The notes beneath the pieces were generated by a model. It had not been told where the DNA came from. It did not search any database and saw nothing but the letters and a program-made list of their open reading frames with translations. This document shows positions 31,462-63,082 of a DNA stretch of 64,000 bases, one piece after another; the first letter of the stretch is position 1; every line of letters begins with the position of its first letter. The stretch spans positions 1 to 64,000 of IMG/VR virus record IMGVR_UViG_3300025778_000010; one strand, 5' to 3'. This DNA is from a virus. Position numbers and translations under genes: made by a program.

Positions 31462-31911
31462 CTAGATTGTTAAATCAGCAAAGGCGTATCCGCCATATAC
31501 TGTTGTTCCACCATTTCTAGTGTAAAAGTTTAATACTGTTGTGTTAAGTGAAAGAACTGGTGCAGTATTTGAAGCTCCGCCACCGTCCCAAATAATTGAA
31601 GCAGGCCACGTGATCGTATATGAACCACCTGACTTAATTTCTACCTGCCAAAACTGACCGTTTGAAATACCGTTGTAAGTTGCTGGTGCAGTGTTTGAAA
31701 AAGCAATTGTAATATTACCTGCTGCAGTTAAAGAAAAAAGATTTGCTGTAGAAAGGTTTAATGTTGCAGTACCTGAAGATACTGTTCCAAGTGCCGTATA
31801 AGCAGATGGAATATTGTAATATCCATTACCCTGCCCATTTAAAGGTGCCTGAATATAAGTTGTTGTCCAAAGAGCTGGAACAATTGCATCAGGCGACATT
31901 GTAACGCCCAT
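31462..31911 (-). CDS. virion fibre adaptor-like protein (paralog of 39856..40257)
   Basis: LGT...LNLS..N.F...GGSYTITWP...P.L...GGTTVYG pattern. Confidence 0.55.
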   Translation of the reverse strand: MGVTMSPDAIVPALWTTTYIQAPLNGQGNGYYNIPSAYTALGTVSSGTATLNLSTANLFSLTAAGNITIAFSNTAPATYNGISNGQFWQVEIKSGGSYTITWPASIIWDGGGASNTAPVLSLNTTVLNFYTRNGGTTVYGGYAFADLTI

Positions 31912-34568: not shown

Positions 34569-35480
34569 CTATAAACCAGTAGTTAGGGTGTGGATAAAAC
34601 CAACCATTACTACTACTCCACAAATTGCAGCCAATGTCCTATAATAGTCTTTCCAAACCGCCCCAAAATACCTTTGCCCTAAAAGCATGCATTTATGGAG
34701 TGGTGACAACATATAGCCAGACCAGCCAATTGCAAACAAGACTGGCAAATAGGTGATGCCAAAAATTGATGCTGTAAGAGCCACAACTCCAGTAAATTTT
34801 TCGCTGCTTCCAAAGGCCCAGCTCATAAAAAATACTAAAAGAAGTATTGGGAACAACAGAACGTGCTTATCTGTATTAGCTAACAAATGATCAAAAAACC
34901 CTGAGTTATAATAAATTATATTGCCAATAATATCCAGAGCTAGTACAAAAAGTACTGTAAAAATTCCTTCTTTAAGATATTTGATTCCATCTAAATTTTG
35001 ACGTTCTCTATGGCCTCGAACAACAATATCTACATCTTCTTCTTTAACTACCCAAAAATCATAAACTAAACTACAAATAATTGCTGCTGTAAGAATTGGC
35101 CAAATACGTCCAAAAAAACTCCAATACCCAATATGTAATGCAGCCATAGGTAATATAACTGATGCTTCTAATGGGGACCAAAAATAAAAATGATGTGCAT
35201 TTAGATAATCAACAATAGCAAATTTTTTACGTTTATTTGGATCTTCTGGTGCAATAGTTCTTAGTACCCCGCCAGAAATAACTGTCCTACCGTTAATTGG
35301 CATTACAGCGGTAGTTGCAGAAGTTAATACCATGACCGCTCTTTTTGATTTAATTCTATTTGCTAACCAACCAAAAACTGGTTGAAAGACATCATATTTT
35401 GTAGCATAATATGAAAGTACAAGAACAAACGCTAATGCTGCAACATATTGCCAATCTGTTAATAAATAACTAAGTGTCAT
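34569..35480 (-). CDS. polytopic membrane protein, DUF401/ion-transporter superfamily-like
   Basis: about 9 hydrophobic segments; MPINGRT.IS, HHFYFWSPLE, GYMLSPLHKC motifs. Confidence 0.65.
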   Translation of the reverse strand: MTLSYLLTDWQYVAALAFVLVLSYYATKYDVFQPVFGWLANRIKSKRAVMVLTSATTAVMPINGRTVISGGVLRTIAPEDPNKRKKFAIVDYLNAHHFYFWSPLEASVILPMAALHIGYWSFFGRIWPILTAAIICSLVYDFWVVKEEDVDIVVRGHRERQNLDGIKYLKEGIFTVLFVLALDIIGNIIYYNSGFFDHLLANTDKHVLLFPILLLVFFMSWAFGSSEKFTGVVALTASIFGITYLPVLFAIGWSGYMLSPLHKCMLLGQRYFGAVWKDYYRTLAAICGVVVMVGFIHTLTTGL

Positions 35481-37120
35481 TTTTCAACTACCAATACATA
35501 TATGCCATTCCACCAATCTTTTTCAGATTCAGTAGAATTTAGGACTTTCTTTGAATATAAAACCTTAAGGTTAGATTTTACTATTCCTTCATTTGCTCCC
35601 GCCACAACATTAGTTCCGTTAGCATCATCAAATATCATTATAGCGTTTTTAGCAAAAGATTGTGAATAATATAAGACAGCTTTTGCTGTAGTTTCTTGAT
35701 CATGTGGTCCGTCATAAAAAAACAAATCAATATTTTTAATTAAAGATAAATTTACATCAAACAAATCTGTATTACATACAAAAATTTTGTTTTCTCCAGC
35801 ATATGGCTTGATGTTTTTTTTAAATTCTTCTAAACTATTAATATTTGGAGTTAATATATCTAATCTTTCAGGTTGTGGTGCAATTTCCCATTTATCAACA
35901 AAATAAGCATTTAATTTATTATCTTTAAGGGCTGAAGCTGCGGTAGCACCTAAATATGATCCTACCTCTAAATAATTACTTGATTCTTTTGCTAAAGAGT
36001 TAATTAAAGATTGCACTCTTGAACTTGTTAACCCTGGAACATCAATATCAAGGTCCACATTTACAGAATCAACTAATTGATTAATTACAAGAGTAACTTT
36101 ATCATTTTGTTTTTCTGGATATTTAGCTTTAATAATTTTGTCACAAAATCCACAATCCCAGCAATCAAACTTGCAGTTTTTAATTTTATTACGCCATACA
36201 TTAATGGGTTTATCAACAAGATTTGTCTCTTCAATAAAATCGTTAAAGCCATCAAAAAGTATTGGTTCGTTTGCCACATACTTTTTAATAATATCCATAG
36301 TCTCACGAAGCCTTACATGAGACTCTCGCCCATGCATCTTAATTACATCAATTCCTAAATTATCCAAAAATTCCTGCCAATCTTCACGCCATGGTGGAAA
36401 ATTAGCTACCTTAAGGGATGTAGCAGCATCTTCTTTTTGCCATTTAGGGCATGATACACGACTTATTGGATCATTAAAATATTGTGGTCCTTCTGAACGG
36501 GTATTATTAAATTGATAATGCTCATCCATCATAATACAACCGCCATAGCAGCCTTCATTTGCAAGTAAAGATAGTTTAACGCCATATTTTTCTTTAGCTT
36601 TTTTAAATCTTAAAAGCTTTTCATGATCTCTCATAAGATCTCTGTCAAGATTAATATAATCAAATCCTGCTTTAGATAACTTTTCAATATCTCTAGGTTC
36701 TGATACATTTCTAAGAATTGTATTTTTTACAAACAACTTTGGGAATTTAGATTTAATTTGTCCCGTTGACATCCAGTGGGTGTGAGGAATTGTAGCTGAT
36801 CTAATACCTGCATCATATAAAGGCTTAAAGTTTTTAATCCATAGGTCTAAGTTATCTTGTGAGGGCCTTACCTCTATATTGTTAAAAACTGCTGATGCGG
36901 TTACACCAGTAAATTCTTGAATATTTAAAGCTAGATCAATTAAATATTTATGATCTTCTTCTCCACCAATAAAATTATCCCCCATAGCATCTTGTGTAAA
37001 TGGGGGTATTCGGCAGGTAAAATAAAAATCATAGATAACATGATTGTACTCTTTAAGGAATAAGATAAATTCCTCAAGCTTATCTGGAGCAAGCTTGGGG
37101 TTTAAAGGAACACTAAACAT
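35477..37120 (-). CDS. peptidase U32-family (Fe-S) domain fused to a class I SAM methyltransferase
   Basis: INLDRDL, LLANEGCYGGC, RVSC, IKMHGRE and CKFDCWDCGFC Cys cluster; C-terminal YLEVGSYLG...FFYDGPHD...IFDD (Methyltransf_24-like). Confidence 0.75.
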   Translation of the reverse strand: MFSVPLNPKLAPDKLEEFILFLKEYNHVIYDFYFTCRIPPFTQDAMGDNFIGGEEDHKYLIDLALNIQEFTGVTASAVFNNIEVRPSQDNLDLWIKNFKPLYDAGIRSATIPHTHWMSTGQIKSKFPKLFVKNTILRNVSEPRDIEKLSKAGFDYINLDRDLMRDHEKLLRFKKAKEKYGVKLSLLANEGCYGGCIMMDEHYQFNNTRSEGPQYFNDPISRVSCPKWQKEDAATSLKVANFPPWREDWQEFLDNLGIDVIKMHGRESHVRLRETMDIIKKYVANEPILFDGFNDFIEETNLVDKPINVWRNKIKNCKFDCWDCGFCDKIIKAKYPEKQNDKVTLVINQLVDSVNVDLDIDVPGLTSSRVQSLINSLAKESSNYLEVGSYLGATAASALKDNKLNAYFVDKWEIAPQPERLDILTPNINSLEEFKKNIKPYAGENKIFVCNTDLFDVNLSLIKNIDLFFYDGPHDQETTAKAVLYYSQSFAKNAIMIFDDANGTNVVAGANEGIVKSNLKVLYSKKVLNSTESEKDWWNGIYVLVVEK

Positions 37121-37681
37121 TTATAAATCTATCTTTGCTTCTTTTTCAGGGTACTTTTGAATACCAAAATTATAATGCATTAAATCAGATGTCTCTTCCA
37201 TATCTTTGCACTCGTCAATTCTTTCTTGCATACCTTTTTTTCTTGCATAAAGATCTTCTAAGGAAAGGTATCCCATTTCTGCTTTAAAAATATCTGGAGT
37301 ACCTAAAAACATGTAAAGTTTGTTATTATAATATTTATTTAACATACAATGCATGATAGCTTTTTCAAATAAATGAGCATTATATTTATCTTCTTCTGTA
37401 AGCGTATATCTTAATTTTTCGCCAACTTGCTCTAATTTATCTTTATCTGTTTGATCATATTGATTGGTGTCTGGCCTTACATTAAAATAACCTTTTCTAC
37501 GTCCAGCAAACTTATAAGCTAAAGCTACTTTTTCTGGAATCACCATGCACTCTGGCAGAGTATCTCTGTAAACAATAAATTCTTCTGTTCTTCCAATAAG
37601 AAAACCTGCATATTGACCAATTTCTTCAATAAAACCTTTTCTTTCATTTACTAAAGAATGCTCATAAATAAAATAAATCAT
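37121..37681 (-). CDS. hypothetical protein
   Basis: probable start 37681 (MIYFIYEH); tightly coupled between the coiled-coil and U32 genes. Confidence 0.65.
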   Translation of the reverse strand: MIYFIYEHSLVNERKGFIEEIGQYAGFLIGRTEEFIVYRDTLPECMVIPEKVALAYKFAGRRKGYFNVRPDTNQYDQTDKDKLEQVGEKLRYTLTEEDKYNAHLFEKAIMHCMLNKYYNNKLYMFLGTPDIFKAEMGYLSLEDLYARKKGMQERIDECKDMEETSDLMHYNFGIQKYPEKEAKIDL

Positions 37682-37682
37682 T

Positions 37683-38417
37683 TTATAAATCCAATTCTGC
37701 CCAACCAGCTTTATCTGAACTTTCAAGTTCTAACTTATTCATAACATCTTTTTGTACTAATTCAAGTGTTTTTTGAGTAATAATTGTTTTTTCAACAGCA
37801 TTTTCTAATGCTTTCATTCTTACTTCTTCTGGAAGTTGATAGATAGCTTCAAGATTACCACCATTAATTCTTCCATAGAACATTAAATCATAAGCAGCTT
37901 GACCGCCAAGGCGGGTTGCCCAAAGTTCTGCCTCTAAACGCTCTTCTTCATCATAATCACCAATAATGTCTATATAACGTCTGCCATCTGGCATTTTGCC
38001 TTCTTCAGATTCATTAAACTTAGTAATTAAAGCCATATATTTATCACGTTCTTCGTAAACCATTGTAACTAAATTTTTTGTATTGTAAATAGATCTTTCT
38101 TTTTCACGAATTGTAATATTATGAATTTTCTTTTGAGCAGGAGAATCTGTTTTTTCTAATAATTCTTTTTCTAATTCTACTTCTGCTTGCAATTTTTCAA
38201 TTTTAAATTCATATTCAACAATATTATCTTCTCTTGATTTTAATTCAAGAAGAAATTGTCTTAGCTTTCCAAAATTGCTATATTGTGCTCCTCCAACAAA
38301 GTTATCAATCTTAAATGTTGGAACGCCCCAATTTCTATTTACTGCATATAAAAGCATATCTCTTTGTTCTTTTGAATAGCCGTCAACACGACTTGTAATA
38401 TCGTTAATATATCTCAT
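37683..38417 (-). CDS. coiled-coil hypothetical protein
   Basis: heptad-rich centre; W..RLG.QAA.D...GRI.GGNL.AI motif. Confidence 0.65.
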   Translation of the reverse strand: MRYINDITSRVDGYSKEQRDMLLYAVNRNWGVPTFKIDNFVGGAQYSNFGKLRQFLLELKSREDNIVEYEFKIEKLQAEVELEKELLEKTDSPAQKKIHNITIREKERSIYNTKNLVTMVYEERDKYMALITKFNESEEGKMPDGRRYIDIIGDYDEEERLEAELWATRLGGQAAYDLMFYGRINGGNLEAIYQLPEEVRMKALENAVEKTIITQKTLELVQKDVMNKLELESSDKAGWAELDL

Positions 38418-38432
38418 TAATTTATCTTTCTT

Positions 38433-39350
38433 TTATGATCGTTGTGAGTTGTATGCAGAACTTCTGCCTGCGGGTCCTTGAGGTTGCATTGAAGATCCGC
38501 CCTCGTACCCTGAATCTGTTATATAGCTATAACGCCAAGCTCTTCTGTTTTGTGATCCATCGTAATTACCCATGCAGTATTGATGGTCTTGACCCATATC
38601 AAAGTTTTCTTCTCCGCAGTTACCAATTGGTTTTGAAACGTTACCTACGTTTGTTTCTGTTGCAACTGACCAACGACGTAAATAATAGCCTCCATTATAA
38701 CCTCCTTCATTACCTGCATAAAGGTAATTTAATTTAGAGGAAATACCTTTTTGTTGACCCCAATATCCACAAACGCTTGATTGTGATTGTGTTTCTGTTG
38801 CAAAAACAAATTTCATACCAATATTATTGTCTGCCCATGTATAACCAACATATTCATGATAAAAAGATGAACCACCCGAACCACCAGTAGTGTTTGAATA
38901 AGCATTTGACAAAGATGTTTGCCAAGTTGCATTTATCATATTAAATTTTACGATAGTTGTTGAAACATTTGCATTACCGTAAGCAAATTGTTGTTCTTTT
39001 TGCATAAATACACCTGAATTACCCAGTGAAACTGGAGCTGAAGCAGCAGTTGAGCCAACTTCTGTTCTCATATTAAACTGCATTACTGCTGGATCTGAAC
39101 CACCTACACCATTATTAGCTTTTGTAATCCAAGCTACGTTGTCATTGGCAAATCCTCCTGGATAACCCGTAGCTGCTGTAAGCACATCTCCTAAAGAAAC
39201 TGGAGTATCATTTGAGTGTAAATATCTATTTACATTTTTCCAAGGTGAGCTATTTTGGTATCCAGAGTGAACATACCCTGTTGTGATAACAGTTCTTAAT
39301 AAAAAACTTACTCTTGGATTATTGTGAATAGTACTTTGTGGAAATGGCAT
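38433..39350 (-). CDS. kelch-like/beta-propeller repeat virion protein
   Basis: repeated ..F..ATE.. / GY..GG blades (KFVFATET, RWSVATET, YSYITDS). Confidence 0.55.
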   Translation of the reverse strand: MPFPQSTIHNNPRVSFLLRTVITTGYVHSGYQNSSPWKNVNRYLHSNDTPVSLGDVLTAATGYPGGFANDNVAWITKANNGVGGSDPAVMQFNMRTEVGSTAASAPVSLGNSGVFMQKEQQFAYGNANVSTTIVKFNMINATWQTSLSNAYSNTTGGSGGSSFYHEYVGYTWADNNIGMKFVFATETQSQSSVCGYWGQQKGISSKLNYLYAGNEGGYNGGYYLRRWSVATETNVGNVSKPIGNCGEENFDMGQDHQYCMGNYDGSQNRRAWRYSYITDSGYEGGSSMQPQGPAGRSSAYNSQRS

Positions 39351-39859
39351 TATGAACTCACAATGTAGCTTAATTTAACCCCTTGAACGTTAAGAGAAGG
39401 ATATTTTACGTCAAATGGATCAGCAATATTATCTGGCAAATCTCTTAAAGCTTGGCGATATTCAATAATTTTTTGTTGATCTTCTGCAGAAAATTTAGAA
39501 AAATAATCTGAAAGTACAAGATAGTCTGTTTCCTTAATCATATTATTTCTATTATATCTAATAGCATTAATTTGAGTATTAACTGATTCTAATTTTTCAT
39601 CATCAGTCATGTCAACTGCAACAACATGTGATGTTGGAACATTATTTTCAACAACTGTTACATACTCTAATTTTTGATTTTTTGGATCATATCCAGGTAA
39701 TGTTGGGTTAGATACAACTGGTTTCCAATCATCAAAACCAATTACATGTTCTTCATTAATATCTGCTGGAAATAGCGTTGATGGATAAAGAGATCTGAAT
39801 TCATATTCAGAAATAACTTGACCCAAAGAACCATCTGAGTTAATTTTTGCAAAGTTCAT
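39350..39859 (-). CDS. tail fibre assembly chaperone (Tfa/gp38-like)
   Basis: IRYNRNNMIKETDY...EYRQALRDLP motif; start 39859 by ATGA overlap. Confidence 0.8.
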   Translation of the reverse strand: MNFAKINSDGSLGQVISEYEFRSLYPSTLFPADINEEHVIGFDDWKPVVSNPTLPGYDPKNQKLEYVTVVENNVPTSHVVAVDMTDDEKLESVNTQINAIRYNRNNMIKETDYLVLSDYFSKFSAEDQQKIIEYRQALRDLPDNIADPFDVKYPSLNVQGVKLSYIVSS

Positions 39860-40257
39860 CGTGTATCCTTCATTACTATATTGCCTCTCCAAGTTGTACC
39901 ATTATCATAACTTACAAATGTTAATGTGTCAACTCCTGTGCTTGTTAGTGTTGGTGGGGTTGCTGATGGATATTTTGAACCCGCAAATGTTAATGTATAC
40001 TGTCCTCCATTTGTAATGGATATTGAAAATGATACTGTACCTGAAGATGGAACGTTAATTGGGGTTAATGTAATTGAAGCTCCTGCTGTAAAAGTAAAAT
40101 CATTATATTGAGAAAGATCTAGGTTTGTATTAGTTGTTAAAGTTCCAAGATCTTGTCTCTTTGTATTATAACCAGCAAGTGTAAATGTGTTTGCTGTTAA
40201 ACCTGTAACAGTTGCACCTGTAAAACTGGCATTAATTACATCTGATAAATTTGTCAT
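39856..40257 (-). CDS. virion fibre adaptor-like protein
   Basis: start 40257 (MTNLSD); paralog of 31462..31911. Confidence 0.55.
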   Translation of the reverse strand: MTNLSDVINASFTGATVTGLTANTFTLAGYNTKRQDLGTLTTNTNLDLSQYNDFTFTAGASITLTPINVPSSGTVSFSISITNGGQYTLTFAGSKYPSATPPTLTSTGVDTLTFVSYDNGTTWRGNIVMKDTR

Positions 40258-40928
40258 TAGAATACTCTCCATCCATATGTGGAGTTAGAGTAAATAAATC
40301 TTTTACCCGCTCCATTTACGTTAAAGTTAAATGTTGTTATTGAACCTTGAATAATACCACCTGCACCTGCAGTAACAGTAAATGGAGTTGATGCTGATGT
40401 TCCTGCAGCATCTACAATAATAACTTCTGCTCCAATTGATGGGGCAGAAGGTAGAGTAATTGTAAGTCCTGAAGCTGGAACCACAAAATATCTATCTCCA
40501 TTTACAGCAAGTTTATTTGCAGTAATAATTTGCCATGGATTATAGGAAGCTAAAGCTGAAACTGCAGCAGATGCTGAGTTTGCTGTTGCTGCAATATTAG
40601 AAGAAACTGATTCAAGAGAAGCAATGCGACCATTGTGGTTTGTATAAAGAATATTTAAAGCATTGTATTGGCTTGATAGTGATGATACAGCAGAACCATT
40701 TGATGTTCCATTTACAACGTTAATTGTTGAAGCTCCTGCAGCTGCTACTTGAGCAATTCCCGCATTTGTTGCACCAACAACGTCATTAACACCCAAAGAT
40801 GTTCCTAAAATTTGCAAAGCTTCAGAAAGATAAAGAATATCTATAGCAGCAATAGTGCTACCTTGTAAAGCATCAATTCTGTTTTGAATAGTTCTAGTTT
40901 CACTACCCAGCGATGTATAGTCTGTCAC
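40257..40928 (-). CDS. fibre protein: coiled-coil anchor + T4 gp9/gp34-like repeat
   Basis: AVNGDRYFV..TITLPSAPSIG..V.IVD...Y.NSTYGW pattern. Confidence 0.6.
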   Translation of the reverse strand: MTDYTSLGSETRTIQNRIDALQGSTIAAIDILYLSEALQILGTSLGVNDVVGATNAGIAQVAAAGASTINVVNGTSNGSAVSSLSSQYNALNILYTNHNGRIASLESVSSNIAATANSASAAVSALASYNPWQIITANKLAVNGDRYFVVPASGLTITLPSAPSIGAEVIIVDAAGTSASTPFTVTAGAGGIIQGSITTFNFNVNGAGKRFIYSNSTYGWRVF

Positions 40929-62821: not shown

Positions 62822-62895
62822 GATTCCATAGATCAATTGGTTAGATCGCTACCCTGTCACGGTAGAGGTTGCGGGTTCAAGTCCCGTTGGAATCG
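62822..62895 (+). tRNA. tRNA-Asp(GTC)
   Basis: acceptor GATTCCA/TGGAATC, D arm GATC/GATC, anticodon arm CTACC-CTGTCAC-GGTAG, T arm GCGGG-TTCAAGT-CCCGT; no encoded CCA. Confidence 0.95.
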
Positions 62896-63082
62896 CAAAG
62901 TTTAAATGGTCATCACGGCGTGTCGAGTTGACAAAACAGCTGGGGCGGGCTGGCCCCATAAAATCCATAATGTCAAGTCTTTACGGATGTGATTATAAAC
63001 ACATTTACGGATGACCGATATGTCCGATTTGTCTGCGTGTCTAAATTGATTACTCATGGGTAACTTGCTATAATACTCACCT

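Follow-up and report, generated by a model that had tools for sequence, protein, structure and literature searches.

Proteins of the U32 superfamily bind a [4Fe-4S] cluster through conserved cysteines arranged in the motif CX6CX15CX3/4C (PMC6747719). The U32 hydroxylases TrhP1 and TrhP2 share an operon with TrmR, and TrhO-TrmR fusions exist (PMC6599085), so that the hydroxylate-then-methylate logic proposed in a preliminary description of the phage locus studied here has clear precedents. In B. subtilis yrrMNO (TrmR, TrhP2, TrhP1) and in eukaryotic TrhO-TrmR, a hydroxylase is coupled to a catechol-type SAM O-methyltransferase and the pair acts on tRNA U34. The phage module resembles these systems in this coupling and, by analogy, in the order of steps (C-H to C-OH to C-OCH3), but it is a late module whose partners are a propeller, a coiled-coil and a membrane protein, and it has no evident RNA-binding module.

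The genes themselves have been on record since 2010, when the cyanomyovirus clusters T4-GC351 to 354 were catalogued as hypothetical proteins only, with neither domain assignment nor function (Sullivan et al. 2010, PMC3037559). Of these, the propeller corresponds to GC351 (annotated 'similar to sericin 1 precursor'), the coiled-coil protein to GC353 and the fusion described below to GC354; P-HM2, P-SSM4 and further phages carry these genes in colinear arrangement, and the cyanophage fusions are ~45% identical to ours. The gene block is widely shared but unstudied, its literature entry being the hypothetical proteins T4-GC351-354, and the earlier statement that no such system had been described holds for the function but not for the genes. 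All P-HM2 orthologues (PHM2_098-101) were classed as late genes (PMC5082946 supplement).

The window, a 64,000-nt stretch of a 108-kb freshwater virus, contains the block at 34569-39859 (Table 1). As first described, it consists of six tightly packed genes; all ORFs are on the minus strand, at the positions originally assigned to them. Neighbouring genes overlap by 4 bp or 1 bp, abut directly or are separated by at most 15 bp, and the last gene is followed by an AT-rich gap of 90 bp.

Table 1 Features of the block, in order of transcription
Feature	Coordinates	Strand	Basis
Tail-fibre assembly chaperone-like gene, 169 aa from ATG	39350..39859	-	PF16778, PHROG
Kelch-like beta-propeller protein, 305 aa	38433..39350	-	phrog_1417, ESM Atlas model
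Coiled-coil accessory protein, 244 aa	37683..38417	-	phrog_1409
Small acidic protein, 186 aa from ATG	37121..37681	-	matches no family
547-aa fusion, whole gene	35477-37120	-	
Fusion N-domain (residues 1-340), predicted divergent U32-superfamily (beta/alpha)8 barrel	36100..37120	-	AlphaFold, Foldseek, VIA
Fusion C-domain (residues 346-547), class I SAM methyltransferase, Methyltransf_24	35480..36085	-	PF13578, VIA
DUF401-related multi-pass membrane protein, 303 aa	34569..35480	-	PF04165

Across 82 related loci (fusion identity 54-80%), the order propeller, coiled-coil, small protein, fusion and DUF401-like protein was conserved. The triad of coiled-coil, U32-like and DUF401-like genes also recurred in Ralstonia jumbo phages (RP31) and on one Leptospirales chromosome, in agreement with the expectation that the genes are co-conserved. 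Because this gene order recurs in 82 loci and seven cysteines of the fusion are invariant in 61 homologues, the features of the cassette are not due to chance. The fibre chaperone, originally counted as part of the cassette, did not follow this pattern: it was kept in only 32 of the 82 loci and, like the flanking anchor genes, was conserved only in close relatives, so we regard these genes as flanking the module, not as belonging to it. The chaperone-like gene matched Phage_tail_APC (E 4.4e-10) as well as PHROG tail-fibre-assembly families. Its ATG at 39859 overlaps the stop of the upstream gene; the program-made ORF list begins at an upstream TTG (39892).

The fusion protein carries every motif previously quoted for it (NEGCYGGC at 188-195, SC at 223-224, KMHGRE at 261-266 and CKFDCWDCGFC at 316-326). 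AlphaFold modelled the N-domain as a TIM barrel (pLDDT 92.9), for which Foldseek ranked 5d88 (Mk0906) first (E 2.1e-7, TM 0.71), as did VIA (5d88_A; Z 16.7, rmsd 3.1, 223 of 247 residues aligned; second rank at Z 12.9). To our knowledge, Mk0906 is the only U32 protein with a solved structure. The Pfam model PF01136 gave no match to residues 1-340 at E up to 10 and none in the whole genome. Intermediates linked the two families: a profile of the N-domain family found spirochaete proteins (E 1e-13 to 1e-27), three of which exceeded the PF01136 cut-off of 22.4 bits (43, 40 and 28.8 bits) while six remained below it (12.6-20.7 bits). Alignment of the N-domain family to four E. coli U32 proteins with hhalign was in register but weak (E 0.0088, probability 4.6%). 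C191, C195 and C224 align with C169, C176 and C193 of UbiU, with a 3-residue deletion, and the TrhP cysteines are likewise covered; K261-x-x-G264-R265, within KMHGRE, aligns with the U32 motif KIEGR.

The modelled fold, the transitive Pfam matches and the motif alignment place the N-domain within the U32 superfamily (UbiU/UbiV, TrhP (YegQ), RlhA (YdcP), Mk0906) as a very divergent member, with a cysteine pair predicted right after a late barrel strand and a third cysteine downstream. The earlier U32-like assignment therefore stands at the superfamily level, on Foldseek, VIA, the intermediates and the motifs. Canonical PF01136 membership was rejected, as the Pfam model is blind to the barrel and the cysteine pattern is not CX6CX15CX3/4C but C191-X3-C195-X28-C224, followed by C316-X3-C320-X2-C323-X2-C326. 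All seven cysteines are invariant in the 61 homologues at a mean column identity of 22%, and the last four form an extra CX3CX2CX2C knot specific to this U32-like branch. Since this spacing differs from the U32 motif, cluster type and chemistry may differ as well. Around the barrel, D31, D44, K132, R160, R164, E189, H201, K261 and R265 are also invariant. In further distinction from known U32 proteins, the phage protein is encoded in a late structural region and carries a fused methyltransferase; stand-alone forms of ~330-450 aa occur in this branch too. Membership in the radical SAM superfamily was likewise rejected: PF04055 did not match, and the CX3CX2C (316-323) sits after the complete barrel rather than after strand 1.

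The C-domain matched PF13578 with 35.2 bits (cut-off 26.3) and was modelled with a pLDDT of 94.6. Its best VIA folds were 5x7f (Z 17.1), MeT1 (16.8), SpnH (15.9) and TrmR (5zw3, 15.5); the first six matches were all O-methyltransferases (Z 17.1-15.9), followed within 1.5 Z units by tRNA m1A58 methyltransferases and CbiT. As the matches grade smoothly from Z 17 to 15 and include tRNA and sugar methyltransferases, they do not fix the substrate class. The sequence contains a SAM loop (LEVGSYLG at 384) and the acidic motifs YDGPHD (469) and FDDAN (497). The Rossmann fold with acidic motifs after strands 4 and 5 is shared with the cation-dependent/TylF-like O-methyltransferases CCoAOMT, Rv0187, MeT1 and SpnH, which are the top structural matches; at the sequence level, no match to solved chains was found. 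Judged from the nearest folds, the C-domain is probably of the O-methyltransferase type, putatively cation-dependent.

The fusion gene overlaps the membrane protein gene by 4 bp and is translationally coupled to it. The membrane protein scored 40.6 bits with PF04165 (cut-off 24, E 2.6e-10), the best stretch spanning residues 221-297 only, and 38.8 bits with TIGR00529 (E 6.8e-10), far under that profile's cut-off of 378. The Leptospirales DUF401 protein, encoded 3' of the U32-like gene, is 39% identical to the phage form, and its profile match falls in the N-terminal half; across the two forms, both halves are matched. Compared with canonical DUF401/TIGR00529 proteins (AF0261, ion-transporter superfamily), the phage form is shortened by ~100 residues. 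Both the DUF401 relationship and the C-terminal SAM methyltransferase had been recognised in the preliminary description, and the profile and fold matches bore them out. Invariant motifs of the membrane protein are DY..HH.Y.WSP.E, GSS.K and SP.HKC. The role of supplying an ion or substrate, proposed for this protein earlier, found no support. Its gene was present in 61 of the 82 loci, and in cyanophages it is optional, lying near the fusion in only 12 of 126 records (the S-CAM4 copy is 58 kb away).

Of all partners, the coiled-coil protein accompanies the U32-like domain most constantly (77 of 82 loci). Its middle part is helical and rich in heptads, and its invariant residues include W166, R169, Q173, D177, G187 and N188. 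In RP31, a homologue is encoded immediately upstream of the stand-alone U32-like gene (A6 profile, E 1.6e-31). The Leptospirales homologue (28% identity, E 5e-17) also lies upstream, separated from the U32-like gene by one unrelated 229-aa ORF. The small acidic protein matched nothing in Pfam, PHROG or NCBIfam and was detected in 48 of the 82 loci, always in the same position.

The propeller protein gave no match to Pfam Kelch in the profile scan, and its ESM Atlas model (pTM 0.77) superposed on Kelch-BTB proteins over ~279 residues (TM 0.80-0.81). In related viral clusters, propellers are fused to fibre-type domains, and the protein is probably a fibre-tip or receptor-binding module. Its gene precedes the fusion gene in 73 of the 82 loci, with tandem duplicates in some. 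Among cultured cyanophages, propeller and fusion each occur in 123 records and break down by host in the same way, as compared by totals. The module of the Ralstonia phage lacks a propeller, and the Leptospirales locus does not clearly contain one; the enzyme therefore cannot depend on it everywhere.

The region is best explained as an accessory module rather than a set of fibre subunits. Our preferred reading, which we hold tentatively, is a conserved late phage module built around a hydroxylate-then-O-methylate enzyme, with the propeller fibre protein or an attachment to it as the most likely target. At its centre would be a single polypeptide with two catalytic domains. C191, C195 and C224 occupy the positions of the [4Fe-4S] ligands of UbiU and TrhP and may bind a cluster here too, and the branch-specific CX3CX2CX2C knot could carry another cluster or else a metal. 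Following the precedents of TrhP+TrmR (U to ho5U to mo5U) and UbiU/V+UbiG, we propose that the barrel would add a hydroxyl group without O2, the donor probably being prephenate-like, and that the fused methyltransferase would then methylate this hydroxyl using SAM, so that C-H becomes C-OCH3 overall. In this scheme, the coiled-coil protein would serve as an obligatory partner and the DUF401-like protein as a frequent but dispensable helper, for which co-substrate transport or membrane tethering are guesses. The target, the most speculative part of this proposal, would be the Kelch-propeller fibre protein inherited together with the enzyme, or else an attachment to that protein, and the modification would take place as virions are assembled. 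In favour of this reading we counted, as peptide-directed kin, one distant homologue that carries a fused PqqD peptide-recognition domain and is encoded next to a PqqD-radical SAM-SPASM maturase. Counted against it were that synteny with fibre genes may reflect shared late regulation alone and that the bacterial relatives occur in mixed genomic contexts, among them radical SAM clusters, a squalene-hopene cyclase and an FAD enzyme.

It is possible, if rather unlikely, that the enzyme instead has a lipid or small molecule at the membrane as its substrate (a quinone or isoprenoid precursor, an envelope glycan or a sugar), with the DUF401-like protein as transporter or anchor and the propeller linked by neighbourhood only. 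The translational coupling of the fusion to a transporter-superfamily protein and the maintenance of the U32-like/DUF401 pair in three unrelated lineages agree with this, but most cyanophages have no DUF401-like gene near the fusion, and canonical DUF401 genes at 19 spirochaete loci had no U32-like neighbour. UbiU/V act on polyprenyl phenols in the membrane (PMC6747719), whereas the hosts concerned (cyanobacteria, Ralstonia, freshwater bacteria) differ in their quinones. A squalene-hopene cyclase gene adjoins two spirochaete relatives, the next two ORFs resembling DXS and a polyprenyl synthase by their N-termini only, and two sugar O-methyltransferases, MeT1 and SpnH, rank high in the C-domain fold matches; the matching cyanophage totals for propeller and fusion speak against this reading.

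We consider it improbable that the fusion is the phage counterpart of TrhP+TrmR (or of RlhA), hydroxylating and O-methylating a wobble uridine in tRNA or a base in rRNA and so retuning translation for the AT-rich phage genome. This is what the sole characterised U32/O-methyltransferase pairing does, and hydroxylase-TrmR fusions exist, but the C-terminal motif of TrhP (PMC6599085) has no counterpart in our protein because the barrel runs straight into the cysteine knot and the methyltransferase. TrmR structures are found among the C-domain folds (5zw3, Z 15.5; 8k1f, Z 14.6) and some sources label homologues 'predicted O-methyltransferase YrrM', yet none of the constant partners (propeller, coiled-coil and membrane protein) is RNA-related. 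The G+C content of 32-41% across the window (2-kb steps) would suit such a role; the only tRNA gene in the window, tRNA-Asp(GUC), is not an xo5U tRNA, and late co-expression of the P-HM2 orthologues with structural genes would be poor timing for a translation factor.

Least probable of all is a barrel that is dead or performs other chemistry (radical-type, or redox sensing by the CX3CX2C), or a set of propeller-fibre assembly factors causing no covalent change: the deviating cysteine pattern, the radical SAM-like spacing of the C-terminal cysteines (one relative gave a faint Radical_SAM match, E 0.22) and the adjoining fibre chaperone gene are consistent with it, but the invariant polar residues and the apparently intact SAM-binding domain argue for catalysis, and radical SAM enzymes carry their CX3CX2C after strand 1, not after the barrel.

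The cassette is made up of six genes that abut or overlap one another and are followed by a 90-bp AT-rich gap after the last gene. The virus record that contains the window measures 108,356 bp and is complete by CheckV, and the window has a G+C content of 32–41%. Fibre and virion structural genes lie upstream of the cassette, and a second fibre-like cassette lies downstream. Because paralogous small fibre-type genes precede the two successive cassettes, the accessory fibre region seems to have undergone serial duplication. A promoter and terminator scan inside the gene block revealed no signal exceeding shuffled expectation, the isoelectric points of the cassette proteins were uninformative on the substrate class, and megablast of the cassette region against cultured phages gave zero matches.

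Positions of the cassette genes (in transcription order), of further features in the window, and of loci holding relatives of cassette genes
Feature	Coordinates	Strand	Family or content
Gene 1, tail-fibre assembly chaperone-like	39350-39859	minus	PF16778, PHROG fibre-assembly families
Gene 2, 305-aa protein (propeller)	38433-39350	minus	phrog_1417
Gene 3, 244-aa helical protein (coiled-coil)	37683-38417	minus	phrog_1409
Gene 4, 186-aa small protein	37121-37681	minus	no family match
Gene 5, 547-aa fusion	35477-37120	minus	phrog_1458; Methyltransf_24 at residues 384-499
Gene 6, 303-aa membrane protein	34569-35480	minus	DUF401, phrog_14035
Whole cassette	34569-39859	minus	
Small paralogous fibre-type genes	31462-31911 and 39856-40272		phrog_9017 / phrog_19200
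tRNA-Asp(GUC)	62822-62896		
Tandem propeller paralogues	L083:3217-6494		
1,523-aa protein, Leptospirales	L089:2847-7418		
Barrel relatives, large phages	L090:2722-8293, L095:2613-8284		
Divergent small ORF, FAD-dependent enzyme, U32-like gene	L111:4211-6585, L114:2768-5176		
U32 protein next to cyclase, two spirochaetes	L112:5815-12481, L113:5854-12525		
PqqD-barrel fusion, spirochaete	L116:5482-8275		

The preliminary description had placed a U32-like domain at the N-terminus of the fusion (here the N-domain, residues 1–340) and quoted four motifs, NEGCYGGC, SC, KMHGRE, and CKFDCWDCGFC, all of which we recovered in place in the sequence (residues 188–195, 223–224, 261–266, and 316–326). Pfam assigned no family to this domain even at E 10, a search of the whole 108,356-bp genome with PF01136 (U32) found nothing, and PDB sequence and profile searches with the fusion, the N-domain family, the full-length fusion family, and the coiled-coil family returned nothing meaningful. 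Searching 1.8 billion representative proteins exhaustively yielded 281 clusters related to the N-domain at E ≤ 0.001, with many stand-alone proteins of 330–450 aa among them; Pfam families were found in 0 of 20 tested relatives. Across a 61-sequence alignment, seven cysteines are invariant (C191, C195, C224, C316, C320, C323, and C326), and the polar positions that are invariant or nearly so include K132, R160, R164, E189, H201, K261, and R265. AlphaFold, supplied with this alignment, modelled the N-domain as a (beta/alpha)8 barrel (mean pLDDT 92.9, pTM 0.91). Its nearest structure is the U32 protein Mk0906 (5d88), which ranked first in Foldseek against the PDB (E 2.1e-7, target TM 0.71, rmsd 4.1; runner-up barrels at TM about 0.5 and rmsd > 8) and in an all-against-representatives structure search (5d88_A, Z 16.7, rmsd 3.1 over 223/247 residues; next entry 12.9).

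Homology beyond fold likeness was traced through spirochaete relatives, which a family profile search detected in 12 of 301 Spirochaetota genomes. Three of ten re-called spirochaete relatives score above the PF01136 cut-off (43, 40, and 28.8 bits), and six further ones match it below cut-off (12.6–20.7 bits). In a joint MAFFT alignment of the window protein with proteins from phages, spirochaetes, and E. coli, C191 and C195 align with C169 and C176 of UbiU (C170 and C177 of TrhP) with a three-residue deletion, C224 aligns with C193 of UbiU/TrhP, and KMHGRE with the U32 motif KIEGR. The profile-profile match to four E. coli U32 proteins is weak (probability 4.6%, E 0.0088) and lies in the same register (residues 97–177 versus UbiU 80–157); when UbiU or UbiV was supplied as a single sequence, hhalign with the N-domain family produced noise. 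Taken together, the PF01136 matches, the aligned cysteines and KIEGR motif, and the shared register argue for common ancestry, and the earlier view of the N-domain as a U32-type TIM barrel is borne out by the model and by these three tests. The published U32 cluster motif, CX6CX15CX3/4C, provides four ligands for one [4Fe-4S] cluster (PMC6747719; review PMC11574389). Compared with it, this branch keeps cysteines at three of the four positions and has an additional CX3CX2CX2C knot behind the barrel, which is why we file the N-domain as a divergent branch of the U32 superfamily rather than a canonical member. A radical SAM reading of the CX3CX2C motif was rejected because of the motif's position and of zero PF04055 matches.

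Residues 346–547 of the fusion fold as a class I methyltransferase in the model (pLDDT 94.6). Foldseek matches of this domain were generic, while O-methyltransferases lead the all-against-representatives search (Rv0187-type 5x7f, Z 17.1; mannoside O-methyltransferase MeT1, 16.8; SpnH, 15.9; TrmR, 15.5). These scores grade smoothly into tRNA m1A58 methyltransferases. Language-model neighbours are viral stand-alone Methyltransf_24 proteins, and in some of their clusters a minority of members also carries TylF or Methyltransf_3. The modelled domain is thus best read as a putative O-methyltransferase. Hydroxylation with subsequent O-methylation has a firm precedent: the yrrMNO operon encodes TrhP1/TrhP2 together with TrmR, and TrhO-TrmR fusions exist (PMC6599085).

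The linkage of the cassette genes, which the preliminary description had put forward for a neighbourhood check, was confirmed at 82 loci with a fusion relative (54–80% identity in IMG/VR, 44–45% in two cyanophages; partners located by tblastn). With order and orientation kept, the coiled-coil gene is present at 77/82 loci, the propeller at 73/82, the membrane protein at 61/82, and the small protein at 48/82; the chaperone and the upstream anchor genes occur at only 32–33/82. Among 50,697 cultured phage records, the U32-like domain was found in 123 cyanophages and 3 Ralstonia jumbo phages, and the propeller in 123 records, with a breakdown by organism and host identical to that of the fusion's cyanophages when compared as totals and with 0 in Ralstonia. 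The fast-evolving coiled-coil protein was detected in 25 of these records and the membrane protein in only 12, lying distant from the fusion in S-CAM4. More than 1,800 proteins of the U32-like branch were counted at E ≤ 1e-5 among the candidates scored; viral loci for two stand-alone homologues were not found.

Two stand-alone settings delimit the conserved part. Ralstonia phage RP31 encodes, in order, a coiled-coil homologue, a stand-alone U32-like protein, and a DUF401-like protein, without methyltransferase or propeller. A 6.4-Mb Leptospirales contig carries a 1,523-aa DUF6519/Laminin_G_3/DUF2341 protein, a coiled-coil homologue (28% identity, E 5e-17), an unrelated 229-aa ORF, a stand-alone U32-like gene (35–37% identity to the window protein by tblastn and blastp), a DUF401 protein (39% identity, E 7e-37), and a patatin. 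Since the phage loci, RP31, and the Leptospirales locus share them, the coiled-coil protein and the U32-like barrel form the invariant core; the DUF401-like protein often joins them as a third member. The aquatic myovirus form is marked by its methyltransferase fusion and its propeller. The 1,523-aa protein that opens the Leptospirales locus (L089) shows Kelch-like repeat wording in its C-terminal ~100 residues, and its homology to the phage propeller is not significant (best BLASTP E 0.19). By ORF layout a prophage origin of this locus seems unlikely, the 18 kb upstream consisting of mixed-orientation ORFs that are not arranged as in a phage. A general pairing of DUF401 with U32-like genes was discarded, as the 19 spirochaete loci examined around canonical DUF401 genes contained no neighbour with a family-profile match at E ≤ 1.

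More distant relatives occupy varied contexts. At L090 and L095, in phages of about 160 kb, a barrel relative of ~25% identity comes after three paralogous fibre-like genes (~222 aa) and a flavoenzyme of the tryptophan-halogenase family (PF04820, E 4.5e-108); L095 also carries paralogue arrays after it, eight ORFs of about 200 aa encoded on the other strand. Spirochaete relatives were found between radical SAM genes, and one adjoins a Sortilin/BNR propeller protein. At L116, a PqqD peptide-recognition domain is fused to a U32-like barrel, with a PqqD-radical SAM-SPASM maturase encoded immediately after it, an arrangement that looks like an undescribed peptide-maturation pair using a U32-type enzyme. 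In two spirochaete genomes (L112 and L113), a small regulator-like ORF and a Pfam-confirmed squalene-hopene cyclase flank a U32 protein that has a Cys knot at its C-terminus; it may tailor an isoprenoid or hopanoid without O2. Two ORFs past the cyclase resemble DXS and polyprenyl synthase, judged from their N-termini only. At L111 and L114, the divergent ORF (71–78 aa) upstream of the FAD-dependent enzyme and U32-like gene resembles a Nif11-type leader peptide by eye and matches nothing in Pfam. Judged by gene content, these heterogeneous contexts fit an Fe-S tailoring family with some peptide-directed members and do not fix the phage substrate.

The propeller protein belongs to no Pfam family, but its model in the Atlas can be superposed onto Kelch propellers (TM 0.80). 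In related viral clusters the module occurs in fusions with glycine-rich, He_PIG, or tail-like trimer domains, as expected of a fibre-tip or receptor-binding domain. Two or three tandem propeller paralogues stand directly upstream of the coiled-coil gene at L083 (also L060, L077, L082, and L063), an arrangement expected of a diversifying receptor-binding module. Family and profile searches detected no relative of known function for the coiled-coil and small proteins.

U32 oxidases are a recently recognized class of O2-independent hydroxylases whose mechanism is unsolved. To our knowledge, their known substrates are only three: ubiquinone precursors, tRNA U34, and 23S rRNA C2501. We tentatively propose that the fusion turns C-H into C-OCH3 on a single substrate during late infection, and we regard the propeller fibre protein as the foremost candidate target because of its apparently matching cyanophage distribution, constant adjacency, late timing, and the peptide-directed relatives. 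Annotated cyanophage loci identify T4-GC351 as the propeller, T4-GC353 as the coiled-coil, and T4-GC354 as the fusion orthologue. T4-GC351 (‘similar to sericin 1 precursor’) to 354 are colinear in 5/16 genomes and all hypothetical (PMC3037559 supplement), and during P-HM2 infection of Prochlorococcus the genes PHM2_098-101 all fall into the late class (PMC5082946 supplement). No functional study turned up in literature searches on U32 together with cyanophage or, separately, on DUF401.

The main rival to this proposal, which we consider rather unlikely, has its target at the membrane or among small molecules and makes the DUF401-like protein the transporter. The membrane protein, a relative of DUF401, is shortened and has polar motifs that are strongly conserved. 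A TrhP/TrmR-like RNA target is improbable, given the late timing of the orthologues and the nature of the partner genes.

It is doubtful that the cassette represents the first U32-type O2-independent Fe-S hydroxylase acting on a protein, placing a methoxy group, through hydroxylation and subsequent O-methylation within one polypeptide, on a Kelch-propeller receptor-binding protein of aquatic phages; if it does, the new post-translational modification would tune adsorption or protect the fibre. In that case the iron at the 3-Cys site would be open to chemistry with the substrate or donor, and electron transfer would fall to a cluster in the CX3CX2CX2C knot. The U32-like branch is abundant (126 cultured phage genomes, common ocean cyanophages included) and occurs in oxic waters fused to a presumed follow-up enzyme. 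Identifying its target would add a fourth substrate class to U32 chemistry and could explain a conserved block of the cyanomyovirus hypervariable fibre region labelled ‘hypothetical’ since 2010. The system should be tractable, as a single soluble polypeptide should hold both steps, the candidate substrate is encoded adjacent to it, and cultured phage-host pairs exist. No RNA runs were among the listed sequencing runs holding window DNA. The tRNA-Asp gene is the sole tRNA gene in the window. Freshwater metagenome runs (2017) contain DNA of the window's virus, and several may be the source sample.
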